In this document: positions 26,583 through 46,543 of the stretch, piece after piece
Position numbering within the stretch: position 1 is the stretch's first letter
How the letters are laid out: each line of letters starts with the position of its first letter
Assembly (NCBI GenBank): GCA_900754255.1
Contig: CAAECI010000094.1
Span: forward strand, 365-64,364
Direction: 5' to 3'
Origin: an uncultured Succinivibrio sp.
Lineage (GTDB): Bacteria; Pseudomonadota; Gammaproteobacteria; Enterobacterales; Succinivibrionaceae
DNA: 64,000 nucleotides
Translations under genes and position numbers: made by a program
The notes under the pieces: model-generated
What the model was told of the DNA's origin: nothing
The model's input: only the letters and a program-made list of their open reading frames with translations
Database searches by the model: none

Positions 26583-26864
26583 ATGGCTTTCCCCGATGAA
26601 CTCATACAACGCTCAGAAAGGCTTTCCAAAACCGCACTTGCAGGCTGCAAGCCCGAAGTCTACGAGTATATGTCCGCCTTGCTTACGGATATAGTGGACG
26701 CTGTGAAAAACCTTTCGGATCCGCAGCTTATAGAGATGCTAAACGGCATCATACGCGAGTTGCTCTCGGCTCAGGAGGCAGGCGATCTTTATAGAATTTC
26801 CGACGATCTCGGCTATGAGCTGCCCTATGTGCTACGGGAAATTGCCCCGCATATCAAAGGCTGA
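26583..26864 (+). CDS. small hypothetical protein (possibly UPF0352/YejL-like)
   Basis: 93-aa helical ORF; weak resemblance only. Confidence 0.35.
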   Translation: MAFPDELIQRSERLSKTALAGCKPEVYEYMSALLTDIVDAVKNLSDPQLIEMLNGIIRELLSAQEAGDLYRISDDLGYELPYVLREIAPHIKG

Positions 26865-26964
26865 ACCAAAATAGTCAGTACAGAAAAAACGGGCAATGAT
26901 CTTACCCGTTTGCAAAAAACTTATAAAAAGGTGGCACGGCTATGCGCGGCGGTGACGCCCGTTT

Positions 26965-28065
26965 TCAGATGATCTGCAACTCGCCGTCTATAGCTCCTGC
27001 CTGATCTAAGGCCTCAAGCACCGACATAAGATCGCCCGGAGCCAAGCCCACCTGATTTACGGCTCTTACCAGATCATCCAGGGAAGCACCGGAATCAAAT
27101 TTAAACATCTTGCCCTTTTTTTCCTGCACGTTGATCTGGGAGTTGGGGATCACCGCCGTACGTCCCTGTGAAAAGGAATTAGGCTGCGAAACCTGAGGAT
27201 CCTCGCTCACGGTCACGGTCAGACCGCCGTGGGTTACGGCCACGGGCTTTAATTTTACGTTGCTGCCTATGACTATGGTGCCGGTTCTGGAGTTGACCAC
27301 GATCCTGGCCTTATCGTCACCCTGAGCAACATCCAGATTTTCAATGGCCGACAGGTATTCCACGCGCTTGGCCGGATTTCTAGGTGCCATCACGCGGACG
27401 GAAACCGCATCCTGAGCGACGGCCGAACCGTTGCCGAAAAAGTTATTGATGGCATCAGCCACATTTTTGGCGGAGGTAAAATCAGGACGATCGAGATTGA
27501 GCACGAAACTGTCGGAGCTGGCAAAGCTGTTCGGAACCTCTCTCTCCACGATGGCTCCGTTGGCAATGCGACCTACGGTAGGAGTATTGACGGTAACCTT
27601 GGATCCGTCCGCCCCCTCGACACCCAAGCCGCCCACTACCAAAGATCCCTGTGCGATGGCATAGACATTGCCGTCTATACCGCGCAGCATGGTTTGCAAT
27701 AATGTACCGCCGCGCAACGAGGTCGCCTCGCCTATGGCGGATACCGTCACATCCACGGTCTGACCGCGCTTGGCAAAGGGCGGCAGCGTGGCATGAATGG
27801 CCACGGGAGAAACGTCCTTGATCTTAAGCGAGGTGGAATCGGGCACCTTGATCCCGAAATTATTGAGCATGGAGCGGAAGGTCTGCTCGGTAAATTTATT
27901 GTTTTTTTCACCGGTTCCGGCCAAGCCCACAACCAAGCCGTAGCCTACGAGCTGATTGTCGCGTACACCCTCCACGCTCGAGATATCCTTGATGCGGGCC
28001 GCATCGGCGTTCAACGCTAAAAACGTCATGCACATCAAAGCTGTCAGCCATTTAAACGTTTTCAT
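26965..28065 (-). CDS. flgI: flagellar P-ring protein FlgI
   Basis: Signal peptide, then [29 protein letters not shown] as in the FlgI family. Confidence 0.9.
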
Positions 28066-28125: not shown

Positions 28126-28815
28126 TCAGCCGAAGATATTAAATACGCTGTTGAAGAACTTGGACAACCAGCCGCGCTCCTGGGTATTGGCCAAGTCGCC
28201 GGTACCGCCGTACTGAATGCGGGCGTTGGCAATACGCTGCGAGGAAACGGTGTTGTCCGAATTGATGTCCTCGGGGCGAACCAAGCCGGTTACGCGCACA
28301 TATTCATTACCGTTATTGAGCATGAGCCATTTTTCACCCTGCACCTGCAGATTGCCGTTGGCAAGTACGCGCACCACGCTTACGGAGATCTGTCCTGAAA
28401 GCGAGTTGCTCTGTGAGGCATTGCCGGAGCCTGAGAATTCCTGAGAATTGGACAGACTTAGGGTAGGCTTGTAGCTGCGAAGATGCAGATCGCGACCTGC
28501 CAAATTCACGTTGCCGAAATTGACCTCATCCTCCTTGGCCATGGAGGTTCCCGCTTTTTTAGATGCTGAGGTAGCCTCCTCCAAGGATACCGAAATGATA
28601 TCACCTACGCGGTGAGCCTTGGTATCGGTATAAAGACCGTTGGAGCTATTGTTGGGATTATAGATCCCGCCCGTCGGTACCGGAGATGAATAATCCTGCT
28701 CGGGCAAGGCCGGAGCAAAGGCGGGATCGTCGGGCTTGGGATCAAAGGTATCCAAGGCACAGCCGGTAAGCATCCATGCGGCAACGGTCGTTGCCATTAA
28801 GGCTTTATTAAACAT
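28126..28815 (-). CDS. flgH: flagellar L-ring lipoprotein FlgH
   Basis: Lipobox LTGCAL; FlgH-family C-terminal region. Confidence 0.85.
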   Translation of the reverse strand: MFNKALMATTVAAWMLTGCALDTFDPKPDDPAFAPALPEQDYSSPVPTGGIYNPNNSSNGLYTDTKAHRVGDIISVSLEEATSASKKAGTSMAKEDEVNFGNVNLAGRDLHLRSYKPTLSLSNSQEFSGSGNASQSNSLSGQISVSVVRVLANGNLQVQGEKWLMLNNGNEYVRVTGLVRPEDINSDNTVSSQRIANARIQYGGTGDLANTQERGWLSKFFNSVFNIFG

Positions 28816-28857: not shown

Positions 28858-29643
28858 CTATACCGATTGAATGAGCGAGCCCATCATCTCATCGACGGTG
28901 GTCAGCACCTTGGAATTCATCTCATATACGCGCTGGGCCGTAATTAGATTTACGAGCTCCTCGGTTACCTTCACGTTTGAGGTTTCAAGCATACTCTGAC
29001 GTATGGAGCCCATGCCGTCCTGTCCGCCTATACCCTGCTGAGGTGCACCCGAGGCAGTGGTCTCCAAAAAGAGGTTGTCACCTACCGGTTCAAGTCCCGA
29101 GGGATTTATGAAGTCGGTTACGGTGATCTGCCCTAAATCCTGAGATACTCTCGAGTTGCCCACGGTAACGCTTACCTGACCGTCACGACCTACGCTGATG
29201 GCCGTAGCGTTTTCAGGTACCTGCATCTGCGGTAATAAAGGGAATCCGTCGACATTGACGATGGTTCCCTCCTCGTTTTTCGAGAACTGGCCGTTACGGG
29301 TATAAGCCGTGGTGCCGTCAGGAAGCTGGATTTCAAAGAAGCCGCGCCCCTGGATCATAAGATCGAAGCTGTTGTCGGTAGTCTCGACGTCACCCTGACC
29401 GAATTGCTTTTGAGTGGCCACGACCTTGGAGCCGGCACCCAGCATCAGCCCCTCGGGCAGATAGCTGTCGGCACTGGATCTGCCGCCGGGCTGGTTGATC
29501 TTTTGATACAAAAGATCCTCAAAAATGGCGCGACTTTTCTTAAAGCCTACGGTGGATGCGTTGGCCAGATTGTTGGACGTAACCGAAATATTGGTCTGCT
29601 GAGCGTCTAGACCGGTTTTACTAATCCATAATGCCGGGATCAT
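28858..29643 (-). CDS. flgG: flagellar distal rod protein FlgG
   Basis: Colinear with E. coli FlgG (ISKTGLDAQQTN...NLAN.ST.GFK ... EMN). Confidence 0.9.
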   Translation of the reverse strand: MIPALWISKTGLDAQQTNISVTSNNLANASTVGFKKSRAIFEDLLYQKINQPGGRSSADSYLPEGLMLGAGSKVVATQKQFGQGDVETTDNSFDLMIQGRGFFEIQLPDGTTAYTRNGQFSKNEEGTIVNVDGFPLLPQMQVPENATAISVGRDGQVSVTVGNSRVSQDLGQITVTDFINPSGLEPVGDNLFLETTASGAPQQGIGGQDGMGSIRQSMLETSNVKVTEELVNLITAQRVYEMNSKVLTTVDEMMGSLIQSV

Positions 29644-29651
29644 AAGCTCTC

Positions 29652-30401
29652 CTATTGATAACTAAGCAGACGATCCTGGGCTTGATCCATTTGCCCGGCC
29701 TCGTCTATCAATTTAACCGTGGTGTCATATTGACGCTGAATGCGGATGAGGGATGTCAATTCCTCGACGGGATTGACGTTGGATCCCTCCAGCATGCCGC
29801 TGCGCACCTTCACCGTTTGATCTTGTGCAAGACTCGTGCCGTCTCTCAAACGAAACAGACCGTCATAGCCCTTTTCTATATCCTTGTAGCTCTCGGGATT
29901 GACGAGCTTTATGCGCTGGTAATTCTCCAGCACATTAGTGGCTGCCCCCTGGGGGCGCCCGGAGATCACGCCGTCGTCGCTTATATGTACGGCCTCGAGC
30001 ATGGGCGGCAGAATGATTTGAGTTCCGTCCTCATCGAGCACGTCCAAGCCGTTTTGAGTCCTGAGCACTCCGTCGGCTCCAACCATAAGCGATCCCATAC
30101 GGGTATAAGCCTCGTTGCCGTCACGATCGTTGACGGCAATAAAGCCGTCTCCCTGCACGGCAATATCCAAATCACGATCCGTGGTTTCAATGGCCCCGCC
30201 TGACATGTTGTAGCCCGGACGCTCATCCATAGCAAAGGCTCGCGAGGGATAGGCATCGGCAAAGACGCTCATGGCGCGGGAATTTTCAAAATCAGCCTTA
30301 AAACCGGTGGTATTGGCATTGGCAAGATTGTTCGAACGTACGGCCAAAGAATGGAAATTTTCCTTAGCCCCCGACATTGCCACCCATAATAATTTATCCA
30401 T
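29652..30401 (-). CDS. flgF: flagellar proximal rod protein FlgF
   Basis: Colinear with E. coli FlgF (SNNLANANTTGFK ... MLEGSNVNPVEE). Confidence 0.85.
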   Translation of the reverse strand: MDKLLWVAMSGAKENFHSLAVRSNNLANANTTGFKADFENSRAMSVFADAYPSRAFAMDERPGYNMSGGAIETTDRDLDIAVQGDGFIAVNDRDGNEAYTRMGSLMVGADGVLRTQNGLDVLDEDGTQIILPPMLEAVHISDDGVISGRPQGAATNVLENYQRIKLVNPESYKDIEKGYDGLFRLRDGTSLAQDQTVKVRSGMLEGSNVNPVEELTSLIRIQRQYDTTVKLIDEAGQMDQAQDRLLSYQ

Positions 30402-30449
30402 CGATACCTCCGCGTCCTAAAACGCAGTTTTATATTCTGATAAATATAT

Positions 30450-30465
30450 TGCAACAGCCGTGCCA
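30450..30465 (-). promoter_or_regulatory. sigma54 promoter (TGGCAC-N5-TTGCA) upstream of flgF
   Basis: Minus strand reads TGGCACGGCTGTTGCA, a perfect -24/-12 consensus about 50 nt upstream of the flgF ATG. Confidence 0.6.
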
Positions 30466-30532
30466 TGTTTAAACGGCCTTTGATTTATCAATGAGATGGA
30501 TTTTTAAGGAAAGAGAAGATGGATTGGATCAC

Positions 30533-30566
30533 AGAAGTACAGTCGGTTTTCCGACTGCACTTCTGA
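30533..30566 (-). other. 15-bp stem-loop between flgD and flgF (no U-tract)
   Basis: CAGAAGTACAGTCGG-TTTT-CCGACTGCACTTCTG with one mismatch. Confidence 0.6.
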
Positions 30567-30587
30567 TAAGGATGGGACAGCAGAATG

Positions 30588-31295
30588 TTACATGGCGATC
30601 TCGGTCACGTCCGAAAGCTTGACATCGCCGTAACCGACGAGATTCAAAATAGTATCCGAGCTCGTCTTGCCTAAGGTTACGCTGCCCACCACCGCATAGG
30701 TGGACACGGGTAACGACACGGCCTGTCCGTCGCGTACGGCCTCGGCGCTGATGCTGTATATTCCGGCCGGAAGCTTTTTACCCTCAGAGTCGGTACCGTC
30801 CCAGCTGAAGTCCATGGATCCCGAACCTGCATCCGCCGTATAGCTCCCCACTACCGAGCCTGATGAATCGGTAACGGTGATCTTAAGGTTATTGGCTCCG
30901 GTGCCCGCATCGATCTTGGCACTTAATGCATTGGAGCCGTCAAAGAAGCCCGAGCTCTTATCAGTCAGCACCGAACGTCCCACCAAGCTGGACGCCGAAA
31001 GCGCCGAGCTTGAGGAAATGGCATTGACCACGTTGTCCATGCCCGAAGTTATGGTATTCAAATTCTGCACTATCGACAGCTGCGACATGGTATTGACCAT
31101 TTGGGTATTGTCCACTGGAGACGTAGGATCCTGATTGGACAACTGCGTGGTCAAAAGCTTCAGGAAATCCTCCTGATTCAGGGTATTCGAGGACTGGGTT
31201 TTCGACGCATTCTGCGAGGCAATATACGACGGAGTCTTGCCTATGGAGCTGTAATCAAAACTGTTTGAATCCGACATTTGGACTCTCCCCCTCAA
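30588..31295 (-). CDS. flgD: flagellar hook capping/assembly protein FlgD
   Basis: FlgD N-terminal motif (QEDFLKLLTTQLSNQDPTSPVDNTQMVNTMSQLS). Confidence 0.8.
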   Translation of the reverse strand: MRGRVQMSDSNSFDYSSIGKTPSYIASQNASKTQSSNTLNQEDFLKLLTTQLSNQDPTSPVDNTQMVNTMSQLSIVQNLNTITSGMDNVVNAISSSSALSASSLVGRSVLTDKSSGFFDGSNALSAKIDAGTGANNLKITVTDSSGSVVGSYTADAGSGSMDFSWDGTDSEGKKLPAGIYSISAEAVRDGQAVSLPVSTYAVVGSVTLGKTSSDTILNLVGYGDVKLSDVTEIAM

Positions 31296-31533
31296 TCGGG
31301 CATTATTTGCCGCTTGTTTTCTTATTTAAGCTAAATAATACATATTCCGTGCCATGAAAGGAAACTTTTAAAAGTCATTTGTAATATAACGTTTTTTTAG
31401 CTTAAGGTAATTGCAATACCTCGATCCCTCTCTTTCTTTTGCCTTTAATTACTTTAGCAGAGGCAGACTTTGCCGCCTGCTTTTTTTATATTTGCCGCAC
31501 TTACAAATCACTCTTACCTTAATCTCAAATAAA

Positions 31534-31565
31534 AAAGCAGCCCGAACAAAGGCTGCCCTCTCATG
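31534..31565 (-). terminator. rho-independent terminator just downstream of flgC
   Basis: Minus strand GGCAGCC-TTTGTTCG-GGCTGC followed by TTTTTT. Confidence 0.6.
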
Positions 31566-31578
31566 CTGCACCGCGCGA

Positions 31579-32043
31579 TCAGCCGTTGCTCTGTCCGAGA
31601 CGCAACGTTGCCTGCAACATACTCTTGGCGTTGGAGGCTATCTGCACCGCCGTTTGATAATTACGGCTTGCACTGATCATATCCGTCATTTCCTCCACGG
31701 GATTTACGTTCGGCCTGTATATATACCCCTTTTCATCCGCCAGAGGATGGTTGGGATTGTATTCCTGTATGGCCGGCGCATCGGATTCGATTATGCCCTT
31801 TAAGGCCACGCCTATACCATAAGGTTCGCCGCTATGCGGATCGACGGGCTCACCGCTTTCGGAATTTAAGCGCATGGCCTCGTCCATGGCTGCTTGAAAT
31901 AGAGGACGTCTGGCCTTATACACGGTATCCACGCTCGAGCTTACGGATTCGGCATTGGCCAAATTGGATGCGGTGGCATTCAAACGCACGGATTCGGCGT
32001 TCATAGCCGTTCCGGCAATATCCAAAATTCTAAATACGCTCAT
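31579..32043 (-). CDS. flgC: flagellar basal-body rod protein FlgC
   Basis: Colinear with E. coli FlgC (FxIxGxA...NLANA.S ... YxxPxV). Confidence 0.9.
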   Translation of the reverse strand: MSVFRILDIAGTAMNAESVRLNATASNLANAESVSSSVDTVYKARRPLFQAAMDEAMRLNSESGEPVDPHSGEPYGIGVALKGIIESDAPAIQEYNPNHPLADEKGYIYRPNVNPVEEMTDMISASRNYQTAVQIASNAKSMLQATLRLGQSNG

Positions 32044-32057: not shown

Positions 32058-32486
32058 CTATGAATTCATTTTCAATGCCGACATCAGCTTTTGGATGCGG
32101 GAATTTAAGAAAGTTAACGAGGCCTGATATTCAAGTGAATTTTGTGTGTAATTCATGCGCTCGGTATTGGTTTCGACGGTGTTGCCGTTGCCGGTATCTG
32201 CCTGATAAGGATTACGGTACTTAAGCGTAAGCTCGGGATCCTCAGGCAACATTCCCACGTCCATATGTCTGTCGTCGGTCTTAACCATGGGAGCGTCGAC
32301 ACCGTCATTTTTTACAAGCGAGCGTCCAGACGCCTGAGACAGGGCCAGAGAAAAATCCAGATCACGGGCCTTATAGCCCGGTGTCTCGGCATTGGCCAAA
32401 TTTCCGGCAAGCACCTCGGCGCGTTTCGTACGCACTCCCAAGGTGTACTGGTGTATTCCGAATACCTTGTCAAAGGATACCGACAT
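32058..32486 (-). CDS. flgB: flagellar basal-body rod protein FlgB
   Basis: FlgB motifs (RxEVLAGNLANAETPGYKARDLDF ... GNTV ... NSLEYQ). Confidence 0.9.
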   Translation of the reverse strand: MSVSFDKVFGIHQYTLGVRTKRAEVLAGNLANAETPGYKARDLDFSLALSQASGRSLVKNDGVDAPMVKTDDRHMDVGMLPEDPELTLKYRNPYQADTGNGNTVETNTERMNYTQNSLEYQASLTFLNSRIQKLMSALKMNS

Positions 32487-32504: not shown

Positions 32505-32557
32505 TCAAAAAAAATGCTTCTGCCGTTTTATTACCAGCAGAAGCATTATCCGTGCCA
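32505..32557 (-). promoter_or_regulatory. composite element: cheR rho-independent terminator overlapping a sigma54 promoter for flgB
   Basis: Minus strand AATGCTTCTGC-loop-GCAGAAGCATT plus U8. TGGCAC-GGATA-ATGCT sits on the 5' arm of the same hairpin. Confidence 0.5.
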
Positions 32558-32573: not shown

Positions 32574-33935
32574 TTAGGAGCGCAATTTATAAATGATGCC
32601 GGGGTTGCAACGCAGCATTTCGAATTTCTCGGCAACACCGCTTACGGTCTCGGTAGAGCCCAAAATAAGGTAACCGCCAGGATTTAGACAGGAAACGAAT
32701 TTCTTTAGGATCTGGCACTTCACGTCATTGTTGAAATAAATGAGCACGTTGCGACAGAAGATCACGTCAAAGCGTCCCATCAGCGCAAAGGATCCGAGCA
32801 AATTAAGCGGCCTGAACTCCACCATGCGGGAAAGACGCGGGTCAATACGCATAAGAGCCGGATTATGCGTGGGCTTGAAGAATTTGGCCCGGCGCTCGGC
32901 ACTTAAGCCACGGGAGAGGGCATGTGCATCATACAGTCCCTCACGACAGCGCTGCAGCATTTCGGTGGATAAATCGGTACCTATGATCTGAACCAAGGAC
33001 GGATCGATATGTACCATGCGTCCCATCATTTCCTGAATGGTGATGGCGATGGAATAAGGCTCCTGTCCCGATGAGCAGGCCGCCGACCATATTCTGACCT
33101 GACGATCGGTTCCGCGCATAACCAGATCGGGAATGATGATGTTCTGCAACGCCAGATAAGGATAGGTATCACGGAACCACAAGGTTTCATTGGTGGTCAT
33201 AGCATCGACCACATCATCGATAAGTCTTTGATTCTTACCGTCAAAAACCTGAGCAAGTAGCCTGTCGATACTGTCGCAACGATAACGGGCCAAAAGTCCC
33301 GTAAGACGAGAGGACACCAAATATTGCTTGCCATTGCCCAATACAATACCGGTTTTTTCCTGTAAATAGGCGGCAAAGCGATGATATTGCATGTCCGTGA
33401 GCGAGCCCTCCGTCGCTGCCGATGTCGAGCGGCGGACAGCGGGAACCACATCCGGATTTCTGGAATATCCGGCACGCACCGAGGCTGAAGCCGAGGCCTT
33501 ATCGGCCGGCAAGCCAATACGGCTTAGACGCTGCTCGGCAGAGGGATCGATGGTTCGTTTAAAGAGAGTTCCGCTATCTCTGTTCTTCTGCTCAGCGGCC
33601 TTGCGGGCCTCCTGCTGAGCCTGCAGTCTGGCCCGAGCCGCCTGCAAACGTTCGTCAAAGGAAGGATCCTTTGTCGATACACCCTTGGTATAGTTATCGG
33701 AGGTTGATGAATAGGATGTGCGTGTCGGGATATTGCGTTCACGACTTAGGCGTGCCGCAGATCCCACACGGGTTACGGGACGCGAAGAGACACTGCTTCC
33801 CTCAGTTGGGCGCGAAGCGGGCCCTGAGGCAGGAGTATCATCAGTATAAGGAGAATTATCCTCATAATAATCTTGCTCGGGCGTCTTGTTCTTGCGTTTA
33901 AAAAAGAAAAACATGCTTCGGATCCTCGCAAACAA
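32574..33935 (-). CDS. cheR: chemotaxis protein methyltransferase CheR with a ~170-aa disordered N-terminal extension
   Basis: C-terminal 280 aa are a canonical CheR (N-terminal helical domain plus SAM-MTase, GxGxG-like CSSGQEPYS). N-terminus is S/T/R/Q-rich with no internal ATG. Confidence 0.8.
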   Translation of the reverse strand: MFARIRSMFFFFKRKNKTPEQDYYEDNSPYTDDTPASGPASRPTEGSSVSSRPVTRVGSAARLSRERNIPTRTSYSSTSDNYTKGVSTKDPSFDERLQAARARLQAQQEARKAAEQKNRDSGTLFKRTIDPSAEQRLSRIGLPADKASASASVRAGYSRNPDVVPAVRRSTSAATEGSLTDMQYHRFAAYLQEKTGIVLGNGKQYLVSSRLTGLLARYRCDSIDRLLAQVFDGKNQRLIDDVVDAMTTNETLWFRDTYPYLALQNIIIPDLVMRGTDRQVRIWSAACSSGQEPYSIAITIQEMMGRMVHIDPSLVQIIGTDLSTEMLQRCREGLYDAHALSRGLSAERRAKFFKPTHNPALMRIDPRLSRMVEFRPLNLLGSFALMGRFDVIFCRNVLIYFNNDVKCQILKKFVSCLNPGGYLILGSTETVSGVAEKFEMLRCNPGIIYKLRS

Positions 33936-34131: not shown

Positions 34132-35115
34132 TTACTTATCCTTCTGCTTGATAAGATCAAAGCCTGATGCTCCTCCCTCCACCAGCTCTATTCCTTTCTT
34201 TACGGCCGCCCCCAGCTCGCCGGCCTCAAACTTAGGAATAAAGTCGTTAACTCCCACTTTTTTCACCATATTAATGTTGAAAACACCCGAGAGCGAGGAG
34301 TGCATGATCACGTACAGATTTTTCAATGCCTGATCGGCACGTATGCTGGCCGTAAGGGTATAACCGTCCATTTCCGGCATCTCTACGTCGGAAATCACAA
34401 GCTTTACCTTCTGGGTAACGTCACCGGCATTTTGGGCCATCTCACGCAGCATATTCAAAGCCTTGAGACCGTCCATAGCCTCTATAACCTCCACGCCCAG
34501 CTGCTTTAGGGCGGACTTTATCTGCTTACGAGCCACCATGGAATCGTCTGCAACCAATACGGTGGTATGATTGCGTCGGCATTTTTCAGCAAAGGCCTCA
34601 TCCTCGGAAAGCACCTGAGGCTGCAGGCGCACGTCAACAGGAGAGATCTCCTCCAAAATCTTTTCAACATCGATGATCTCGACAAGCTCCTTGTCGATCT
34701 CTGTTACCGAGGTCATATAATTGCTGTGACCTGCGCCCTTGGGAGGAGGGAGGATCTTGGACCAGTTCATATTAAGAATACGCTCGACCCCCGAGACCAA
34801 AAAGCCCTGAGTGGAACGGTTATATTCGGTAATGATGATGAAGGCCTTTTCAGGATCGGCAACTCCGACACCGCCTATGGCCTGAGCTAAATCGATGACT
34901 GAAATGGTTTGTCCGCGAATTCTGGCCACGCCTATTACGTGCCTTTGCAGATGCGGCAACTTGGTCAGATGCGGGCAGGGTAAAACCTCGCGTACCTTAA
35001 AAACGTTGATCCCGTAACGTTGCTTGAGACCGGATAATTTAAAGAGCAAAAGCTCCATGCGATTTTGTCCGACGATTTCCGTCAACTCGTTAACCGAGTC
35101 CATTACTCCAATCAT
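34132..35115 (-). CDS. cheV: chemotaxis protein CheV (CheW-like domain plus receiver domain)
   Basis: N-terminal CheW-like domain; C-terminal REC domain (VLVADDS..., DVEMPEMDG, K). Confidence 0.85.
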   Translation of the reverse strand: MIGVMDSVNELTEIVGQNRMELLLFKLSGLKQRYGINVFKVREVLPCPHLTKLPHLQRHVIGVARIRGQTISVIDLAQAIGGVGVADPEKAFIIITEYNRSTQGFLVSGVERILNMNWSKILPPPKGAGHSNYMTSVTEIDKELVEIIDVEKILEEISPVDVRLQPQVLSEDEAFAEKCRRNHTTVLVADDSMVARKQIKSALKQLGVEVIEAMDGLKALNMLREMAQNAGDVTQKVKLVISDVEMPEMDGYTLTASIRADQALKNLYVIMHSSLSGVFNINMVKKVGVNDFIPKFEAGELGAAVKKGIELVEGGASGFDLIKQKDK

Positions 35116-38061: not shown

Positions 38062-38437
38062 GCTGTACCTCCGTGAACACCGGATCCGGATCAACGTTTC
38101 TTGCAGGATCAGCTCCGACCTCACATATAGATTGAGCATTAACCTCGGTAATTTCAACGGATGTAAGATCTCGTCCCACAAAACAACGGCGACGCAGCTT
38201 ACCACTTATAAATAAGATCTTGCCCGCATGTATCATATCCATACAGCGACTGGCTAAATTGTTGTTTTGCGCATCTCTGACCGCTACATGAAGACGGGTG
38301 GAGGAAAAAGGACCGTCACCGGGATCGGGTGACGTTACCAGATCAAAAAAGATCATGCGTCCGTTCCTACCCTTATAGTATTTGATCTTAGGATCATCCA
38401 TGACCCTGCCTACCAGCATTACTTGATTGTTCGACAA
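38054..38437 (-). CDS. SSB-like OB-fold protein (no acidic C-terminal tail)
   Basis: N-terminal NQVMLVGRVMDDPKIKYYKGRNG resembles the SSB NKVILVGNLGQDPEVRY segment. TTG start with a perfect AAGGAG SD. Translationally coupled to the AAA+ gene. Confidence 0.5.
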   Translation of the reverse strand: MSNNQVMLVGRVMDDPKIKYYKGRNGRMIFFDLVTSPDPGDGPFSSTRLHVAVRDAQNNNLASRCMDMIHAGKILFISGKLRRRCFVGRDLTSVEITEVNAQSICEVGADPARNVDPDPVFTEVQHG

Positions 38438-38482
38438 GAGAGTTCTCCTTACTTCAAAGAAATTAACTCCCTATATGCTATA

Positions 38483-38521
38483 AAAAGCGCCAAGTCACTC
38501 CCCCCGAAAACCGGCGCTTTT
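38483..38521. terminator. bidirectional terminator at the left island boundary
   Basis: AAAAGCGCC-loop-GGCGCTTTT. Confidence 0.6.
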
Positions 38522-38697
38522 AGCCATTTCTGATTTTTTTCTGGGCTTTTTAATAGTAAATAATTGCTTGTATAAACCATAGTCAACGCTCGCTTAATAT
38601 GGCATGACGGTCGACCTCGGCTTGTTTGTCTTTTCCTTGGTACAAAAACCTCAATAAAATGCGATCAAGACATAATGGAGTGACACGCAATATTCAG

Positions 38698-39903
38698 CTA
38701 TTTAAATCTTATTTGCAAATTCAAATTAAGATAGAATTTGTTGTTTTCGCAGTAGATAGTCATGAACTTATGCCTTTTCGCAGACGGACTTTCAAAACAC
38801 AAGTTTTCGTAAAGGTATTGTTTGAACTCCTCGGTCATACACGAATGTACTGCAACGATTTCGCCGTCATCCTTAACTACCACATATCCGCCGTTTACAG
38901 AAACTTTTCCGTTCCAAGGTTTACTCATACGCATGCCTGTAAACATATCAAACAGCAGATTTGAGATTTTTTTCTCATAAATGTATAAACAGTTGCTAAT
39001 CCCATAATCTGCATTTTCTGCGTCATGCTCAGAAACATATTCACAAGCTTCTTTAACCGAACTGTGTTCTTTCTTTGCCGAAGAATTAAAATAATAATAT
39101 TTAAGCAATGCTGCTGTAATACCTGGCAACTCCTTTCCGCCTGAGGTTATCAAATTTAACGCTGTGAATTCTCCGCAAGTTTTTTCAAAACGCAGATCGC
39201 AATTACTTTCTTTCAATAAATTCATTCGTTTACTGAACGAGGTAGATTTTTTTCCAGAGGAATCTGTATCCCACAAACAATTAAATGCTTCCATGATTTG
39301 TGCGTTACAGCCGATCACTTCGTACTGGAAATTCGTATTGTCGGCACTGGCATTAAAGAGCGTAGCCTTACCGGTTGGAAAGCTGGTTTTTATAGAATAA
39401 GCAAGCAGAGATTCCACACCTGTACGATAATCGGAAGCAAGAAAGTTGATGTCCGGCGTTCCACCGAAAAAACTCTTAGTCCCTTGTTGAGCAGGAGCCT
39501 TCAATTTCGTTACTTTTAGTTTGATTGCCAGAAACTTGCTGACATTACGGTCCTCAATACCCTCTTTGGGTTTTGCATTTTTGATCAAATCCCAGACTTT
39601 TTTTGCACACTTCTGAACGTCTTCAGACGAGACAAAACCGATGTCCAACTTTTCGTTTTCCGTTTTGTCCCAAACCGTATATGTGATATTTCTTGTTTTT
39701 TTATCTTCGTTATTGTGAGACGGTTCGTATTCAATCAGACGATTAGGAATTTCCTCTCGTAGAATTTTAAGAATGTTTAGATAAACTGCTTTATTAAGTT
39801 GCATCCCACTGTCCGCTGCGTACAGTTTTCCTTCATTCAAAATTTTTAAAAATACATATATTTCAGCCCATTCTCCGCGGTTTCCCGTTGTTATTTCCGT
39901 CAT
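38698..39903 (-). CDS. type II restriction endonuclease (HpaII-family-like), partner of the m5C MTase
   Basis: 4-bp overlap (ATGA) with the upstream MTase gene. N-terminal GEWAEIYVFLKIL...GKLYAAD resembles what I recall of the HpaII-type REase family (from memory, unverified). Confidence 0.5.
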   Translation of the reverse strand: MTEITTGNRGEWAEIYVFLKILNEGKLYAADSGMQLNKAVYLNILKILREEIPNRLIEYEPSHNNEDKKTRNITYTVWDKTENEKLDIGFVSSEDVQKCAKKVWDLIKNAKPKEGIEDRNVSKFLAIKLKVTKLKAPAQQGTKSFFGGTPDINFLASDYRTGVESLLAYSIKTSFPTGKATLFNASADNTNFQYEVIGCNAQIMEAFNCLWDTDSSGKKSTSFSKRMNLLKESNCDLRFEKTCGEFTALNLITSGGKELPGITAALLKYYYFNSSAKKEHSSVKEACEYVSEHDAENADYGISNCLYIYEKKISNLLFDMFTGMRMSKPWNGKVSVNGGYVVVKDDGEIVAVHSCMTEEFKQYLYENLCFESPSAKRHKFMTIYCENNKFYLNLNLQIRFK

Positions 39904-41003
39904 TTTAGAATCATCCTTATTTGATTAGCGATCGCCTCAATTACGGGAACCGTAACGCTGTTTCCGAATTGTTTATATAGGTGAGTATCAGCTAACACCA
40001 ATTTAAAATCATCGGGAAAGCCTTGCAGTCTGGCCCATTCTCTTGGAGTCATTTTTCTAATATCTTCCTTATTTATTACACCCTTAATGTGCGTAACCGG
40101 TGTCATGCTGTGCTCACGGTGATCTATAATCAAATTTCGTTCTCTTCCCATTCCGCCGCATACGATGGCTGAAGCTATTCCGTTCATATCTTTGATTTCG
40201 TAGCCGAATCCATGACCAAGAGCCTCGTGTCTGGCTTTATGACGCTTCAATGTCTCAACGTAAACATCTGAGAGGTAGTATTTTGAGGAAACCGGAGCTT
40301 TTTCCAGAATATCACTGATGCATGCTCTAATTCCGGTAGGAGTCGGAAATTTAAAAGAGGACGAATCCAAATCATCTCTGAAGGCGACTATATAAATTCG
40401 CTCCCTATTTTGCGGCACACCAAAGTCTTTACTATTCAGAACCTGAGAATAGACCCTGTACCCGATCTGTTCAAATGCCCCCCTGATAACTTTAAAAGTT
40501 CTGCCGCGGTCGTGTATAACCAGTCCCTTTACGTTTTCGCAAAAAATAACCTTTGGCTTGTGTTTGTCACAAATACGCACCACATCTTGAAACAAAGTAC
40601 CGCGGCACAATCCTTTGTAGTCGTCATTGAACCCCATACGCTTTCCTGCTAAAGAAAACGCCTGACACGGGAAACCAGCCAAACATATATCAAAGTCAGG
40701 AACGTCTTTTTCAGATATTTTTGTTATATCTCCACTGATCTCGAAAGGATCGTGAAAATTTGCGGTATAGGTTTTCTGTGCATATTTGTCCCATTCACTG
40801 ACAAATACAGTCTCTATGCTGTTGTTAAATGCTCTGTCGAAACCTATTCTGATCCCACCAATTCCAGCGAAGAGATCAACTGAACGAAAATTTTTTAATG
40901 AACTCACTGGTTTTAGACTCGTAAATAAAATGTGATATTGTACTTCTCTATATTGCCGTTTTCGGTATTTCAATAAACGATTCGTCCGAACGAAGCCATG
41001 CAT
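39900..41003 (-). CDS. DNA (cytosine-5)-methyltransferase
   Basis: Motifs I (DLFAGIGG), IV (GFPCQAFSLAGKR), VI (ENVKGL), VIII (QNRERIYIV), X (GNSVTVPV). Confidence 0.9.
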   Translation of the reverse strand: MHGFVRTNRLLKYRKRQYREVQYHILFTSLKPVSSLKNFRSVDLFAGIGGIRIGFDRAFNNSIETVFVSEWDKYAQKTYTANFHDPFEISGDITKISEKDVPDFDICLAGFPCQAFSLAGKRMGFNDDYKGLCRGTLFQDVVRICDKHKPKVIFCENVKGLVIHDRGRTFKVIRGAFEQIGYRVYSQVLNSKDFGVPQNRERIYIVAFRDDLDSSSFKFPTPTGIRACISDILEKAPVSSKYYLSDVYVETLKRHKARHEALGHGFGYEIKDMNGIASAIVCGGMGRERNLIIDHREHSMTPVTHIKGVINKEDIRKMTPREWARLQGFPDDFKLVLADTHLYKQFGNSVTVPVIEAIANQIRMILK

Positions 41004-41400
41004 TTAAAATGTCAACTGTCTTCTCTCTTTTAGATTTATTTGTCAACATGCAGGTCCAAACGACGGCAATTCTTAAACCGAGAGATAACAGTTGTCCTAT
41101 GACTTGAGCATCTCTCTTCTTATTTTTTTCTATTTTATCAATCCAAAAACCTCGATTTGTAGAAGGTAGCGAGGATTTTAAGCAATTTGCATGACCGTGC
41201 CAAAAGCATCCGTTTACCATCACGACGGCGTTGTATTTTTTAAAAAATAAATCGGGCGTACCTGGGAGACTTTTTACACAAGTCCGATAGCGATATCCCA
41301 TAGAAAACAACTTTTTTCTTATAAACATTTCAGGACCAGTATTTTTGGATCGAATGAGAGACATGTTCCTGCTTCTTTCTTTCTGATTTTTTGTATCCAT
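40948..41400 (-). CDS. vsr: very-short-patch repair endonuclease Vsr
   Basis: Vsr motifs (SLIRSKNTGPE, PGTPDL, NGCFWHGH, FW..K...N..RD). Overlaps the 5' end of the MTase gene. Confidence 0.85.
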   Translation of the reverse strand: MDTKNQKERSRNMSLIRSKNTGPEMFIRKKLFSMGYRYRTCVKSLPGTPDLFFKKYNAVVMVNGCFWHGHANCLKSSLPSTNRGFWIDKIEKNKKRDAQVIGQLLSLGLRIAVVWTCMLTNKSKREKTVDILNAWLRSDESFIEIPKTAI

Positions 41401-41698
41401 CTTTTCAATCCTCGATAAGTATAAGGTATGGATTTCCCTTCCCAAACCGAACCATGCGATTATACGTTTTGTATAACGCCTTTCTTAATTATTTCAAGAC
41501 AATCACATCAAGTACCGCAGACTGAACTTACGATTTATTAAAGACTTAATTCTTTACCTATATTTTCAAAATATCGCAAGCTTACTAAAAGTAAGTATAG
41601 TCAATATTTTAGCTATACTCAAAATATTGATAATATTTTTAAAATATTTATAATATATAAAGAATATTAATTTACACTTCTTTACAACACAAGGAATA

Positions 41699-41935
41699 GT
41701 GCAGATGAACGATACAGAATCCAAAAGAGAAAAATTTGTGAGGTTGGCTGAAGCAAGAACCAATAAGATTATTGATATGCTCAAGCTTTTAGGCAATTGC
41801 AGTAACTCAAATATATATGAGTACACGAAGGCGGATGTGGATAAAATTTTTTCAGCCATAGAAGCGGCAGTAAAATCTGCCAAACAGGGATATCTGATCA
41901 AAACAAACAATGAAGATGAAAGGTTCAAACTGTAA
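41699..41935 (+). CDS. small helical protein of unknown function (leader of the GHKL operon)
   Basis: 78-aa ORF directly upstream of the GHKL ATPase gene. Confidence 0.4.
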   Translation: MQMNDTESKREKFVRLAEARTNKIIDMLKLLGNCSNSNIYEYTKADVDKIFSAIEAAVKSAKQGYLIKTNNEDERFKL

Positions 41936-41957
41936 ATTAACTACAGGACGGTGCAGT

Positions 41958-43973
41958 ATGTACACAAATGATAATAAACAGCCGCAGTGGGATTTTCCTG
42001 GTTACCCATCAGGAAGCGGTCCTATTACTCAAGGACTTAACACGATAATACAGGATTCATTCAGAGAAAAACCTTTGGATTCATTAATTCGAGAGTGCTG
42101 TCAAAATTCATTGGATGCTTCGGCTAACAACGGAAAGCCCGTCAGAATAGAGTTTCATACTTTTGAAATGTTAACTTCCGATCTGCCGGGAATAGGCGCA
42201 CTGAAAAAGCATATAAAATCATGTCTTAACGGGGTGAATAAATCTAATAATGAGGGAACGAAAAATCCAGAAAAAATACTATACGAAACGGCAAATAGGA
42301 TATTAAACGACAGAAAATTGCTTTGTCTCAGGATAAGTGATTTCAACACTACCGGATTACCTGGGTCCAGAAAACCAAAAGATATTTATAAACTAACCCA
42401 ATGGTATAGATGTGTTGAAACAATGGGATGCTCAGGAGATAAAGAAAAATCGTCAGGGGGGTCCAAAGGAGTAGGTAAATCAACTGCATTTTATAATTCA
42501 GGCATCAGGACAGTGTTTTTTAATACCCTTGACCAAAACGGCGATGAAGCTTCAGAAGGAGTATCTTGGCAAACTTCACATTATGACAGCGATAATAATG
42601 AATGTACTCAGGGATTTTATGCTTGTAAAAATCAAGGTAGGAGACAAGCAATATATGCACAAACCATATTGGATAATTCATTTAAACGAAATGAACCTGG
42701 TACTGACCTCTTTATCATAGGTTTTAATCAAAATGAGAATGAATTCGGAGAAGATCATGATCTAGACACCGTCGTAAAGAATGTCGTAGTAGATTCTTTT
42801 TTACCCGCAATAAAAGCAGGTAATATAATTATCAAAACTGAAAGATCTGAAATAAGCCGTAATACATTACCTGATATCATAAAATATCTCTCATCCGAAG
42901 CCGTACCTAAGAAACGCATCAAACAAGCTAAATCCAACACTGAATTCAATTCAGTTATCGATTCTGAAATACCCGTAAATACATTAGAAACTGATAGCTT
43001 AGGTATAAAAGGGAAATTCGAAATCAAATTGCTTGCCAAGGATGATTACTGTAAAAAAATTGCCGTCTACCGAGAAATTGGCATGAAAATAAAAGAGTTT
43101 AAACCCAGAAAACCATTCGGCTTTGCCGGAGTATTAATAATAAAAGGTCCGGATTTAAATGAATTTATGAAAAACATGGAGACTAGCGCACATAATGACT
43201 GGCATCCAGATATCTATAATGCTGATAAAGAGCAGCTAAAAATTGCAAAACAAATAAAGGACAAACTAACTTATTTTGTTAAAGAATGTGTTGAAAATAT
43301 AAAAACCGAAACAAACAGCGATGATAAAATTGATTCAGGACTCGGAGCTTTATTTCCTGATTCCAATGATTCTTTAAAAACAAAAGGTGAATCTGTTTTC
43401 GGATTGGATCAGTTTGAGGATAAAAAGGAGTTTATTTTTAAAAATTCTTTATCAAACAAAGAAAACACTGTCAGTTATAAAAAAAATGATAAAGAACCCA
43501 ACAAAATATCAATAGATAAAAATGGCGATATAAATGATAAAGAATTCAGATCGACGACGAAAAGAAAAAAAAGCTCACATGATAGGACAGAATCCATCAG
43601 TCCCAACAATACTACGAACAAAGATAATCTTAATAAAGAAATCGAATCAAAGTTCGAAACAGTAAAAGTGAATCTGTCAAATATAAAATTCATTCCATTG
43701 GACAATGAAGGATTCAAATTTAGAGTGAGTTTCATTCCTGAAGTAGGCTATAAAACGGCAATGATTCGATTTAATGTGGCTGGTGAAACTACTGATTATT
43801 CATTACCGATCGCTTATGCAGAAAATGACAAAGGTCCTATTACAATTGAAAAAAACAGTATTTTGTTCGGCGTTCGCCTTACTAGGAATAAACCGTACTC
43901 TTTGGTAATAAAGTTGGAAGATAATACATTCAAATCTTTTTCGGTGGTTGTAGATGCTTATAAGAAAAAATAG
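41958..43973 (+). CDS. GHKL-superfamily (HATPase_c; Hsp90/MORC-like) ATPase protein, ~671 aa, with a large uncharacterised C-terminal region
   Basis: Bergerat-fold motifs: N-box LIRECCQNSLDA (ExxxNSxDA); motif II-like LRISDFNTTGLPGS; G2-box GGSKGVGKSTAFYNS (compare Hsp90 GVGFYSAF). Start at the ATG with an AGGA RBS. Confidence 0.65.
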   Translation: MYTNDNKQPQWDFPGYPSGSGPITQGLNTIIQDSFREKPLDSLIRECCQNSLDASANNGKPVRIEFHTFEMLTSDLPGIGALKKHIKSCLNGVNKSNNEGTKNPEKILYETANRILNDRKLLCLRISDFNTTGLPGSRKPKDIYKLTQWYRCVETMGCSGDKEKSSGGSKGVGKSTAFYNSGIRTVFFNTLDQNGDEASEGVSWQTSHYDSDNNECTQGFYACKNQGRRQAIYAQTILDNSFKRNEPGTDLFIIGFNQNENEFGEDHDLDTVVKNVVVDSFLPAIKAGNIIIKTERSEISRNTLPDIIKYLSSEAVPKKRIKQAKSNTEFNSVIDSEIPVNTLETDSLGIKGKFEIKLLAKDDYCKKIAVYREIGMKIKEFKPRKPFGFAGVLIIKGPDLNEFMKNMETSAHNDWHPDIYNADKEQLKIAKQIKDKLTYFVKECVENIKTETNSDDKIDSGLGALFPDSNDSLKTKGESVFGLDQFEDKKEFIFKNSLSNKENTVSYKKNDKEPNKISIDKNGDINDKEFRSTTKRKKSSHDRTESISPNNTTNKDNLNKEIESKFETVKVNLSNIKFIPLDNEGFKFRVSFIPEVGYKTAMIRFNVAGETTDYSLPIAYAENDKGPITIEKNSILFGVRLTRNKPYSLVIKLEDNTFKSFSVVVDAYKKK

Positions 43974-44313
43974 ATTATTTGCTTATCCTGTTTTAAATGA
44001 TCTTAATAAAAATTACAAAAAAGGAAAATTTAGTGCAGAACTTATTGATAAAAGTTTCGGAGATTATTATGTTTTTGATTGTCATTGCGAACTAGAAAAT
44101 AATAAAAGCATAGAAGCACTTATAAACGAAAGCAAGTGCCTTTATACTTGTTTAGTTGAATGTGGAAAAACGAAATACAGATATCTGTACAGCAGTAAGA
44201 CCCCTATTTTTGAAATAAAGATAAAGAAAACGGAATTATGCGGGCATGTTGAATTTTCTATTAATATAGTTGCCACAAAAAAAAAATACAAAATTTTTCG
44301 TCACCTGATTTAG
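43954..44313 (+). CDS. hypothetical Cys-rich protein. Possibly the 5' part of a gene split by a frameshift at an A10 tract.
   Basis: Overlaps the GHKL gene by 20 nt. Contains CHC...C..C..C. Ends 35 nt after an A10 run. Confidence 0.4.
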   Translation: MLIRKNRLFAYPVLNDLNKNYKKGKFSAELIDKSFGDYYVFDCHCELENNKSIEALINESKCLYTCLVECGKTKYRYLYSSKTPIFEIKIKKTELCGHVEFSINIVATKKKYKIFRHLI

Positions 44314-44378
44314 GCGAAGATTACTCCGGAAGATTAATAAACTTTGACGAGGGATCATTTATTGCTATCGGCCCCCAG

Positions 44379-44855
44379 TTGAGTGAAAATTTTCCCATGC
44401 TTAATGACAGCACTTTTGGGAAAAACAACTCTTTTATCAAAATACAACGTTGTATTAATCCAGATCCATCAATGAGTGTTGATTGGGACGATAATAATAT
44501 TACCATCTATTTATTTAACGATATATATCAATCATATTTAAAATACAAAGACCACAAAAATGTATTTAATCTCCTTATCCAGATGATAGTTGTTCCTGCC
44601 CTTATGGATGTTTTTTCAAAAATCGGCAGTGAATTAAATCATGATTTAATTAGTCCCGATTCCACTAAATGGTACCAAACAATAGATCGTCAATATAAAA
44701 AAGAAAGAAGCAATCGATGTCTGAAGGATGATATAGAATCAGATTCATCCTGTTTGACCATTGTACAAGATATTTTGAAACAACCTTTACGATGTGCTGT
44801 AAATTCTTTAGATGATCTCTTAATTTCTTTTGAAGGCGAGGATATGAATGAATAA
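44379..44855 (+). CDS. hypothetical protein. Frame is open upstream back to 44265.
   Basis: TTG/ATG starts. The reading frame overlaps the preceding ORF across the A10 tract. Confidence 0.4.
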   Translation: MSENFPMLNDSTFGKNNSFIKIQRCINPDPSMSVDWDDNNITIYLFNDIYQSYLKYKDHKNVFNLLIQMIVVPALMDVFSKIGSELNHDLISPDSTKWYQTIDRQYKKERSNRCLKDDIESDSSCLTIVQDILKQPLRCAVNSLDDLLISFEGEDMNE

Positions 44856-45633
44856 TCTAATTTATTTTAAAAGAGAAACGGTAGGAATAATTAAACATGA
44901 TTTAAAATTTATTCTTAATATTTTTTTTACAAATAATCCAATAGAAGAATTGGAGAAAAAATACGGGGAAATAATGGCGTATAAAACCTCCTTTTCATGC
45001 TCTGATTTCTCACTCCTTAAAGATAACGGAGAATGTGTTGGAGATCTGGAAGCCGTAAAACTTGTCCAAGATAAAATGGGGAACATGCCTGCCGCTTTGG
45101 CCTCTGAGGAAGGAATGTGGTCGGCATTAAGCCTTTCCGAACAGTTTTGGCCATATGTTAGAAAAAGATGGTTTATTCCTGCTTTGGAGAGACACTGCAA
45201 CACTAAAGAACCACCTATAAATATGGAACAGAAGGATAAAATATCACAATGGTTGCTTGCCAGAATTTTTTTTGAAAACTATCGCATTACTCGCCATGTT
45301 TTAGCCAGACTGTGGTGGATTGGCAAAATGACCTTTGTTGAAGGAGAAGATCCTTATAAACTTACGACCTTTGTCATGCGCAGTGAAGCATTAGTCACTG
45401 CAATATTCGAACGCAGTCAGGGATCGAACAGGACGCTGGTAAGAAATCTATGTTTCGAATTAATGAAAAGAGAAAAAAACGGAGAGTTAACGGTTAATCA
45501 GAATCTGATAAGAGAACTGTTCAAATATGTTAACGCTTGCGGCGGAGGCATATTGATAGACGAGGTGGCAAACAATCCTGATTCATTATCATTTTTAATG
45601 GATGCATTTTTAAAATGGTATAGACGCCGATGA
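44848..45633 (+). CDS. hypothetical protein (261 aa), last gene of the GHKL operon
   Basis: 8-nt overlap with the preceding ORF; no recognisable motif. Confidence 0.5.
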   Translation: MNNLIYFKRETVGIIKHDLKFILNIFFTNNPIEELEKKYGEIMAYKTSFSCSDFSLLKDNGECVGDLEAVKLVQDKMGNMPAALASEEGMWSALSLSEQFWPYVRKRWFIPALERHCNTKEPPINMEQKDKISQWLLARIFFENYRITRHVLARLWWIGKMTFVEGEDPYKLTTFVMRSEALVTAIFERSQGSNRTLVRNLCFELMKREKNGELTVNQNLIRELFKYVNACGGGILIDEVANNPDSLSFLMDAFLKWYRRR

Positions 45634-45881
45634 CTTATCAAAGAAGCGGCAGTTTATCTTCGATGAGGGTTAAATCTCACCAAAAATGACAGCTGGATGC
45701 AAAAAAACATGCCTATGCTGTAAAATTCACTCCAATGCTCAGATTTTTCTTAATTACTTGATTATTTTTTATTAAAGAAAATGAAGTTAAACAAAGTGCC
45801 TAGTTGCGCCTTGGCAAAGCGGAGATCAATTCGTCTGAAGTCTCCGCCCCTTTAGCAACGAAAATAAATCAGGACAATATA

Positions 45882-46352
45882 ATGCTTTACACCTTTAAAA
45901 TTTATCCCTCCGGTTGGGGCCGGATCGCCTACCGGGTGATGGAAGTAGGCGGAGACAAATCCTTCGACAGCTTGGCAATGGATATTCTGGCCGCATTTAA
46001 CTTTGGCTGCAATCATCTGTATGAATTCAGAAACACATTAGGAAGATCCGACCGTAGCATTATATTTAATCCCAACTACGACAATTTTAATCCGCTCTTG
46101 GGGTTTATCGGTGGAAACGACAGCGACACTGCCGACGAATATAACGATCCCTGTCCAGACCGCAGACATTATGACAGCCGCAGACCGATTAAATTCCTAA
46201 ATCCGGAAAAAAGTTCAAAATTTTATTTTCATTATGATTTCTGTGATGATTGGATTTTTGTCATCCATGTCTCCAAAGTAGAGGCCGATAAGCCATCACC
46301 TGATCACTCAAATGTCATTAAAAGCGTCGGGAAAGTAGGAGGCCGATATTAA
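45882..46352 (+). CDS. pRiA4b ORF-3-like (IS1096 TnpR-passenger-like) family protein
   Basis: N-terminal MLYTFKIYPSGWGRIAYRVMEV...HLYEF matches the pRiA4_ORF3 domain pattern (Y.lKV.L.g..PpIWRR..V...HLyeF). Confidence 0.55.
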   Translation: MLYTFKIYPSGWGRIAYRVMEVGGDKSFDSLAMDILAAFNFGCNHLYEFRNTLGRSDRSIIFNPNYDNFNPLLGFIGGNDSDTADEYNDPCPDRRHYDSRRPIKFLNPEKSSKFYFHYDFCDDWIFVIHVSKVEADKPSPDHSNVIKSVGKVGGRY

Positions 46353-46410
46353 AGCGAGGTTGAGGGATAAGCTCTTCGTTTAAGACACCGGCAGATTTAT
46401 GATGCCGAAG

Positions 46411-46438
46411 AAGCGGCTTTAAAATGTCCGCTTTTTTA
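46411..46438 (+). terminator. rho-independent terminator
   Basis: AAGCGG-loop-CCGCTT plus T6. Confidence 0.5.
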
Positions 46439-46514
46439 TTTAAGCACACGTTATAGAAAGTTCCGGGGCCTAAGGGCCGGCTATGCCGTCCATACTTTGC
46501 TCCGAGGCTGCACA

Positions 46515-46540
46515 CATAAAAAAGACGCCTTTACGGCGCC
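46515..46540 (-). terminator. terminator downstream of tRNA-Arg(CCT)
   Basis: Minus strand GGCGCC-GTAAA-GGCGTC followed by TTTTTTAT. Confidence 0.5.
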
Positions 46541-46543
46541 CTG

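Follow-up and report, generated by a model that had tools for sequence, protein, structure and literature searches.

We analysed a stretch of 64,000 nucleotides (nt) from an uncultured Succinivibrio sp. (assembly GCA_900754255.1, contig CAAECI010000094.1, positions 365 to 64,364; hereafter the window), in which the flagellar rod and hook genes stand in three groups, flgB-flgC, flgD alone and flgF-G-H-I, and flgE, flgJ, flgK and flgL are missing. We are fairly confident that this is, in a Succinatimonas-like bacterium (Succinivibrionaceae, Aeromonadales), a Vibrio/Aeromonas-type polar hook-basal-body regulon whose ancestral flgBCDE and flgFGHIJ(KL) operons have been broken up in evolution, and that flgE was probably not lost but relocated as a single-gene sigma54 unit, with flgJKL likewise elsewhere. 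The hole in the flagellar operon would then be a stable clade-wide reorganisation, neither an error nor a gene loss.

The listing of open reading frames (ORFs), Pfam and NCBIfam agree on the minus-strand order cheV-cheR-flgB-flgC / flgD / flgF-G-H-I, which bears out the order of flg genes given in the preliminary description of this DNA. The genes and the end of the cluster are:

34132-35115, minus strand: cheV (Pfam and NCBIfam)
32574-33935, minus strand: cheR (Pfam and NCBIfam)
32058-32486, minus strand: flgB, proximal rod (NCBIfam TIGR01396 FlgB, 106 bits, above cutoff)
31579-32043, minus strand: flgC, proximal rod (NCBIfam TIGR01395 FlgC, 145 bits, above cutoff)
30588-31277, minus strand: flgD, hook-cap (hook assembly) protein, a single-gene unit (Pfam)
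29652-30401, minus strand: flgF, distal rod (NCBIfam and Pfam, above cutoff)
28858-29643, minus strand: flgG, distal rod (NCBIfam and Pfam, above cutoff)
28126-28815, minus strand: flgH, L-ring (NCBIfam and Pfam, above cutoff)
26965-28065, minus strand: flgI, P-ring (NCBIfam and Pfam, above cutoff)
26884-26911, minus strand: intrinsic terminator 3' of flgI (terminator scan and sequence)

FlgD has the domain set of a hook cap, with an N-terminal region (PF03963, 68 bits), an Ig-like domain (PF13860, 55 bits) and a Tudor-like domain (PF13861, 52 bits), all above the gathering score. It is 100% identical to database protein P0001, and its start at ATG 31277 (229 amino acids, aa) is supported by P0001 and by all relatives. 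The gene content is that of Vibrio/Aeromonas-type loci: cheV-cheR lies beside flgB, flgA and flgM are divergent upstream of cheV, and flgT, flgO, probable flgP and flgN (all four within 46703-49951) as well as a solitary fliS are found elsewhere in the window. flgP was assigned by position alone, with no Pfam match in the window and a weak LPP20 match in the related locus L014.

The contiguous order flgBCDEFGHIJKL of Vibrio- and Aeromonas-type clusters is not present in the window. In the 64 kb, phmmer against all six-frame ORFs detected no further rod/hook-family paralogue, and tblastn with queries from related loci for FlgE, FlgJ, FlgK and FlgL returned only FlgF/FlgG cross-hits. Both gaps noticed in the preliminary description, flgE between flgD and flgF and flgJKL after flgI, are therefore real in this sequence; flgI is followed by its terminator, the convergent orf93 and then proS.

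We placed the window in the Succinatimonas/Succinivibrio clade of the Succinivibrionaceae by FlgD homologues and a scan of a genome collection, and examined 15 comparison assemblies, namely 13 genome loci, the complete genome of S. dextrinosolvens (CP068345.1), a species described as motile, and a contig from the window's own species with 99% identity to it. flgE, flgJ, flgK and flgL were not found within 10 kb of flgD in the 15 related loci. An assembly artefact, in which misassembly or collapse removed flgE from between flgD and flgF, has the unusual gene order in its favour and nothing more. However, flgF is directly 3' of flgD in all 15 assemblies, and the gap is 110-230 nt in 13 of 13 genome loci. 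The identical order is found in the closed chromosome CP068345.1, and the contig of the independent metagenome-assembled genome (MAG) GCA_037232295.1, 99% identical, extends from cheR past flgD into the beginning of one further gene, and this beginning matches the 5' end of flgF. Moreover, the gap carries a conserved terminator and promoter module. Because the flgD-flgF junction recurs in independent assemblies, the misassembly raised in the preliminary description is excluded, and we give an artefact practically no credence. The split order is a clade-wide trait of the lineage, not a quirk of this genome.

The other side of flgD is variable among relatives. In two loci (L003 and L007), 5 kb of unrelated genes, encoding a gamma-glutamyltranspeptidase, a RelA/SpoT-domain protein and a dicarboxylate symporter, lie between flgC and flgD. 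In L010, der and further housekeeping genes precede flgD-flgFGHI; L006, L008 and L011 have no flgBC in the 10 kb upstream of flgD. On this comparison the junction of flgC with flgD marks a genuine boundary.

The absence of flgE, flgJ, flgK and flgL from the window could also be taken as flagellar decay, in which these genes were lost from a non-motile species and those that are left are relics or have another role, e.g. secretion. In line with this, a proteome study of the chicken caecum named C. jejuni the only motile strain tested and reported no flagellin or chemotaxis proteins for S. hippei ET63 (PMC11204068). However, purifying selection on flgD, flgC and flgG is strong, with ratios of nonsynonymous to synonymous substitution (dN/dS) of 0.02-0.11 (0.04-0.11 for flgD versus its relatives, with dS saturated), FlgG is 94-95% identical between species, and all promoters are conserved. 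Since flgD is intact, selection is purifying and FlgG is so similar between species, the flagellar system is maintained. To our knowledge, a hook cap has no function without a hook.

Decay is further opposed by intact single-gene copies of flgE with flagellar-type promoters, which we found among non-flagellar neighbours in five Succinivibrionaceae lineages (L024-26, L027/28, L029/30, L032 and L033-35) and call orphan flgE. These clade proteins were reached only by a search of 50%-identity clusters followed by cluster look-up. A first FlgE search, with the L016 protein as query, gave only Aeromonas-like or outgroup proteins, and the contexts of three of its candidates (P0194, P0210 and P0188) were canonical clusters of other organisms, which were rejected. 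The FlgE proteins of the five lineages are 55-72% identical to one another; their named relatives come from Succinivibrio and Anaerobiospirillum, and one of the orphan-flgE contigs is itself named Succinivibrio. In four of the five lineages, flgE directly follows nth-rnfABCDGE, and in the fifth it follows EamA transporter genes. Each orphan flgE is preceded, at 75-120 nt, by a perfect TGGCAC-N5-TTGCT promoter and followed by a terminator of its own. One orphan FlgE (P0494) comes from MAG GCA_037301515.1, not from GCA_037232295.1, which holds the window-like contig; orphan flgE could not be tied to the window's species, a point that favours decay. Taken together, we consider decay improbable, and relocation of flgE the better account. 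Gut or rumen Succinivibrionaceae MAGs should not be called non-flagellate until orphan loci have been searched for flgE (downstream of rnfE), flgJ, flgK and flgL.

Two side observations concern these flgE searches. In L029 (13483-15063), the orphan flgE has fliK 2 kb downstream of it, with a CGGCA palindrome where fliK starts. The search of FlgE representatives also returned many giant homologues of about 900-1700 aa.

Loci outside the clade show how the break-up may have proceeded. The Aeromonadales-like outgroup contigs L018, L021/22 and L023 have cheV-cheR-flgBCDEFGHIJK(L) in canonical order, with a terminator after flgE and then a sigma54 promoter 52-55 nt before flgF. The module of terminator and flgF promoter is therefore ancestral, and in the window it now simply follows flgD. 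In two intermediate loci of uncultured Succinivibrionaceae, L016 and L017, flgBCD ends in a terminator, flgE follows under a sigma54 promoter, and two reverse ORFs separate flgE from flgFGHI; flgJKL are absent. The series can be read as a three-step break-up of the operon: the canonical cluster, flgE with its own promoter still in place, and finally flgE relocated and flgD left alone.

The first of the three units would consist of a promoter (PflgB), flgBC and a terminator:

32542-32557, minus strand: sigma54 promoter of flgB (PflgB), TGGCACGGATAATGCT, 1 mismatch to consensus
31527-31558, minus strand: intrinsic terminator 3' of flgC, GGGCAGCC-loop-GGGCTGC followed by TTTTTTATTT, fold -21.5 kcal/mol

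The pattern TGGCAY-N5-WTGC stands at the equivalent position upstream of flgB in 9 relatives. After flgC, a 6-bp stem (5 GC pairs) with an 8-nt loop is followed by TTTTTTATTT, giving a T6 tail, which is the form of an intrinsic terminator; the predicted fold reaches 15 pairs through pairing of the A-tract with the U-tract. A hairpin with a T-run is found 3' of flgC in 9 of the 9 relatives carrying flgC, and the terminator proposed there by the preliminary description is confirmed. A consensus scan for sigma70 promoters and terminators showed no enrichment versus shuffled sequences and missed this terminator. Beside PflgB, in the cheR-flgB gap (32507-32557, minus strand), there is a 13-bp hairpin with T8 that overlaps the -12 element, and the arrangement of promoter, hairpin and TTTTTTTTGACG is kept in 9 relatives. 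This hairpin probably ends the cheV-cheR transcripts, while the flgB transcript starts within it.

The gap upstream of flgD is 301 nt long (39% GC) with the ATG start, and 283 nt with a TTG start. Previously it was described as an AT-rich gap of 284 nt; a gap does exist, but the length has to be corrected to 301 nt, and the gap is far from empty, with a conserved putative promoter and palindromes in it:

31457-31480, minus strand: upstream palindrome GCAGGCGGCAAAGTCTGCCTCTGC with CGGCAA half-site, 1 mismatch to GCGGCA-N5-TGCCGC, candidate FlrC/FleR-type enhancer site
31339-31354, minus strand: candidate sigma54-type promoter of flgD (PflgD), TGGCACGGAATATGTA, exact -24 box, -12 box with GT, not GC
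31297-31313, minus strand: leader palindrome GCGGCAAATAATGCCCG (GCGGCA-N5-TGCCSG), between PflgD and the ribosome-binding site

Despite a GC content that varies over 37-66%, each of the 15 loci has PflgD in the form TGGCAY-N5-TTG(A/T)A, 62-84 nt upstream of the flgD ATG. The -12 dinucleotide is GT or GA, GC occurs in none of the 15, and the spacing is kept in every one; PflgB, the promoter of flgF and the flgE promoters, unlike PflgD, retain the GC. The flaA promoter of V. cholerae, which has a TTGA -12 box (TGGCACACTAATTGA), is a precedent for this type of site (PMC3439928).

Downstream of flgD, two features were found in the 186-nt gap before flgF:

30532-30565, minus strand: hairpin with a 15-bp stem and a 4-nt loop, 22 nt past the flgD stop (-26.3 kcal/mol, z = -6.7)
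30450-30465, minus strand: sigma54 promoter of flgFGHI (PflgF), TGGCACGGCTGTTGCA, exact consensus

Both had been noticed before: the consensus promoter in front of flgF matches exactly at its reported place, while the stem-loop, put at 30533-30566, is indeed a strong 15-bp hairpin with coordinates one base off. The exact sigma54 consensus occurs 3 times in the window (0.03 expected), just upstream of flgF, flgO and fliS, and all 15 loci have a GG-N10-GC site whose end lies 35-45 nt upstream of the flgF ATG. In V. cholerae the flgF promoter is an RpoN site by chromatin immunoprecipitation sequencing (ChIP-seq; PMC3439928). A further sigma54-like site, CGGCACGAGTCTTGCA, lies inside flgF (29826-29841, minus strand), about 185 nt before flgG, and in many relatives the corresponding stretch of flgF matches the looser TGGCAY-N5-WTGHW pattern; the site may serve flgG as an internal promoter, or it may be no more than a motif conserved in coding sequence.

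The tail of the flgD hairpin, TCCAATCCAT, has 3 T in 10 and no U-tract, unlike an intrinsic terminator. A strong hairpin stands at the equivalent position in every relative, and in most of them (L003, L005-L013) it has A-/T-run flanks like a canonical terminator; the hairpin of S. dextrinosolvens likewise lacks the U-tract. The comparison suggests that an upstream terminator hairpin, present after flgD in the closest relatives, has been deleted in the window. Because only the U-less hairpin is left, read-through from flgD to flgF is plausible here.

A single transcript from flgB to flgI would go further. The hairpins would then mainly stabilise or process the mRNA, the internal sigma54 sites would only add to transcription, and flgD would not be truly monocistronic. 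The U-less hairpin in the window and S. dextrinosolvens fits such a transcript, and V. cholerae and P. putida are known to have promoters inside longer flagellar operons. However, flgC is followed by a canonical terminator in the window and in each of the nine relatives that have the gene, most relatives have a terminator-like hairpin after flgD, and flgD is physically apart from flgBC in six relatives, where it must use its own promoter. We therefore regard one continuous transcript as unlikely, and prefer three units.

The palindromes around PflgD may be binding sites of its activator, and we give this putative enhancer function about even odds. The upstream palindrome (31457-31480) is about 100-125 nt upstream of PflgD, and the element GGCGGCAAA-N-CTGCCGC keeps its position upstream of flgD in relatives regardless of the upstream gene. 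The same is true of the CGGCA(A/G) half-site in the leader, kept in 12 of 15 loci. Palindromes of this kind are also found ahead of the orphan flgE promoters and in the fliS leader. The half-site equals CGGCAA, the proposed FlrC motif (bioRxiv 10.1101/2021.08.29.457346); an enhancer site of this type would be expected near, and often downstream of, a class III sigma54 start site.

Alternatively, the GCGGCA-N5-TGCCGC palindromes are generic hairpins of the clade (terminator remnants, repetitive-extragenic-palindrome-like elements or stabilisers of 5' untranslated regions) and not activator sites, which we rate as nearly an even prospect. The hexamer CGGCAA is 3.6-fold over-represented in the window (106 vs 29 expected), and the palindrome pattern is enriched there neither in its strict form nor with at most 2 mismatches (4 vs 3.7 expected for the latter). 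In L033 the same kind of palindrome, GGCGGCA..TTGCCGCC, forms the terminator stem of flgE; the L024 copy is downstream of flgE, distant from any promoter, and the flgO copy is within coding sequence. Since CGGCAA is widespread and the L033 palindrome is a terminator stem, the enhancer reading is not secure. On the other hand, the position relative to PflgD is kept across genomes of 37-66% GC, no good copies exist in the outgroup loci L016-L023 (one weak match inside L018), and the half-site is identical to the proposed FlrC motif. Moreover, L010 and L006/L008/L011 keep CGGCAA while its pairing partner changes, which points to recognition of sequence, not of structure. No known RNA family was found by Rfam in either gap flanking flgD.

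Putting these elements together, the regulon would be expressed as PflgB-flgBC-terminator, as CGGCAA palindrome, PflgD, leader CGGCAA palindrome, flgD and hairpin, and as PflgF-flgFGHI-terminator. RpoN holoenzyme would act at each promoter, activated by a flagellar enhancer-binding protein of FlrC/FleR or FlrA/FleQ type, which would probably bind the CGGCAA palindromes on either side of the flgD start site, the downstream one lying close to it. In this way the cell could tune the expression of hook cap, hook, proximal rod, and distal rod with rings, each as a module of its own. RpoN and activator dependence of the three units is predicted from their sequences.

Several points weigh against the proposed break-up into relocated sigma54 units. 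PflgD is without the canonical -12 GC; the CGGCAA hexamer is abundant throughout the window, and in L033 its palindrome serves a terminator. The separate transcripts and their boundaries are all inferred, and read-through into flgF is plausible. The orphan-flgE contigs share no gene with the window, the presumed retention of flgE by the window's own species draws on clade-level evidence only, and the caecal proteome study reported neither flagellin nor chemotaxis proteins for S. hippei.

More tentatively, the flgD unit might be a portable, clade-specific cassette, in which two CGGCAA palindromes, the second of them in the leader, flank a sigma54 promoter whose conserved -12 box is non-GC; orphan flgE would have a similar cassette with a canonical -12 box. 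FlrC-type-dependent cassettes of this kind could have let the hook-cap and hook genes leave the operon, and the deviant -12 box of PflgD might mark a distinct kinetic or activator class. We hold this idea to be doubtful; if it is true, the deviant box would give the hook cap its own timing versus rod and hook. The conserved set of promoter and palindromes offers concrete targets for the study of RpoN/FlrC control in a little-studied family.

Some other features of the window were recorded. CheR (32574-33935, minus strand) has 453 aa, and its CheR N-terminal domain begins only at residue 184; the extra region of about 180 aa has no Pfam match and is less conserved than the remainder, and one S. 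dextrinosolvens contig has a CheR version of 596 aa. The 93-aa ORF at 26583-26864 (plus strand) has no family match and is found with 39-59% identity near the flgI-proS interval in several relatives. flgN (49493-49951, plus strand) comes after flgO and flgP, and in outgroup loci it adjoins flgM; its position is a further sign of cluster reshuffling.

A sigma54-interaction-domain response regulator is encoded at 52856-54283. It belongs to a region (52856-55362, minus strand) with a cytoplasmic PAS histidine kinase and this sigma54-activator regulator, then a DctP-family binding protein, and a sigma54-like promoter whose -12 box is TTGT (TGGCACGGTTGTTGTA) stands in front of the pair. As a candidate FlrBC/FleSR pair, kinase and regulator (52856-55307) received no FlrBC assignment from NCBIfam. 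fliS stands alone between purL and crcB (60826-61537, plus strand), with its exact sigma54 promoter at 60972-60987 and probably its real start at ATG 61064. Its leader contains the palindrome AGCGGCAGTTTTCTGCCGCT and then a T-run (61022-61045), an arrangement reminiscent of an attenuator or of an activator site, and a very basic ORF of 46 aa (60826-60966) is just upstream.

A low-GC island (38200-46620; 30-41% vs about 49%) abuts tRNA-Arg(CCT) (46544-46618, minus strand). It encodes an HpaII-type restriction enzyme, a C5 cytosine methylase, a Vsr nicking endonuclease, a DUF6339 protein and a PRiA4_ORF3-like protein, as well as several ORFs without Pfam match, and is inserted between moxR/flgM and flgT; S. 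dextrinosolvens has those flagellar genes adjacent.

Apart from the rearrangement, the flagellar system is ordinary, and it can be compared with several known ones. No published description of the split arrangement turned up in literature searches, which were not aimed at this point. Cluster 3 of V. cholerae (flgBCDE, flgFGH, flgIJ and flgKL; RpoN/FlrC class III) contains the same gene families and has the same flanking genes, namely cheV, cheR, flgA, flgM, flgO, flgP and flgT. Like the window it has separate promoters before flgB and flgF, documented there as RpoN promoters of flgBCDE and flgFGH by ChIP-seq and RNA sequencing, and its flaA promoter resembles PflgD in the TTGA-type -12 box (PMC3439928). 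In Vibrio, however, flgBC, flgD and flgE share a transcript, and flgH is followed by flgIJKL, whereas in the window a terminator ends flgC, flgD has its own putative promoter, and flgE, flgJ, flgK and flgL are outside the cluster. Pseudomonas (flgBCDE / flgFGHIJKL) shares the split between flgE and flgF, a recurrent point of splitting and insertion in that genus, and PflgB and PflgF are sigma54-dependent there (bioRxiv 10.1101/2021.08.29.457346); in Pseudomonas flgE stays with flgBCD, while in the window flgE alone has left and flgD adjoins flgF.

Nearest in layout are the intermediate loci L016 and L017, which like the window have flgFGHI without flgJKL and a terminator after flgD, with flgE under its own sigma54 promoter. 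They differ in that flgD is still joined to flgBC (22-nt gap) and flgE still lies between flgD and flgF. Campylobacter and Helicobacter also have their hook and rod genes spread over small sigma54-dependent units, one of which is flgE by itself; there the entire regulon is scattered, the activator is FlgR, for which we know of no DNA site, and the lineage is unrelated to that of the window. In summary, the parts are all of known kinds, that is sigma54 promoters, terminators and standard flg genes, and what is specific here is the single-gene flgD, the relocated single-gene flgE, and the conserved non-GC -12 promoter with its CGGCAA palindromes.

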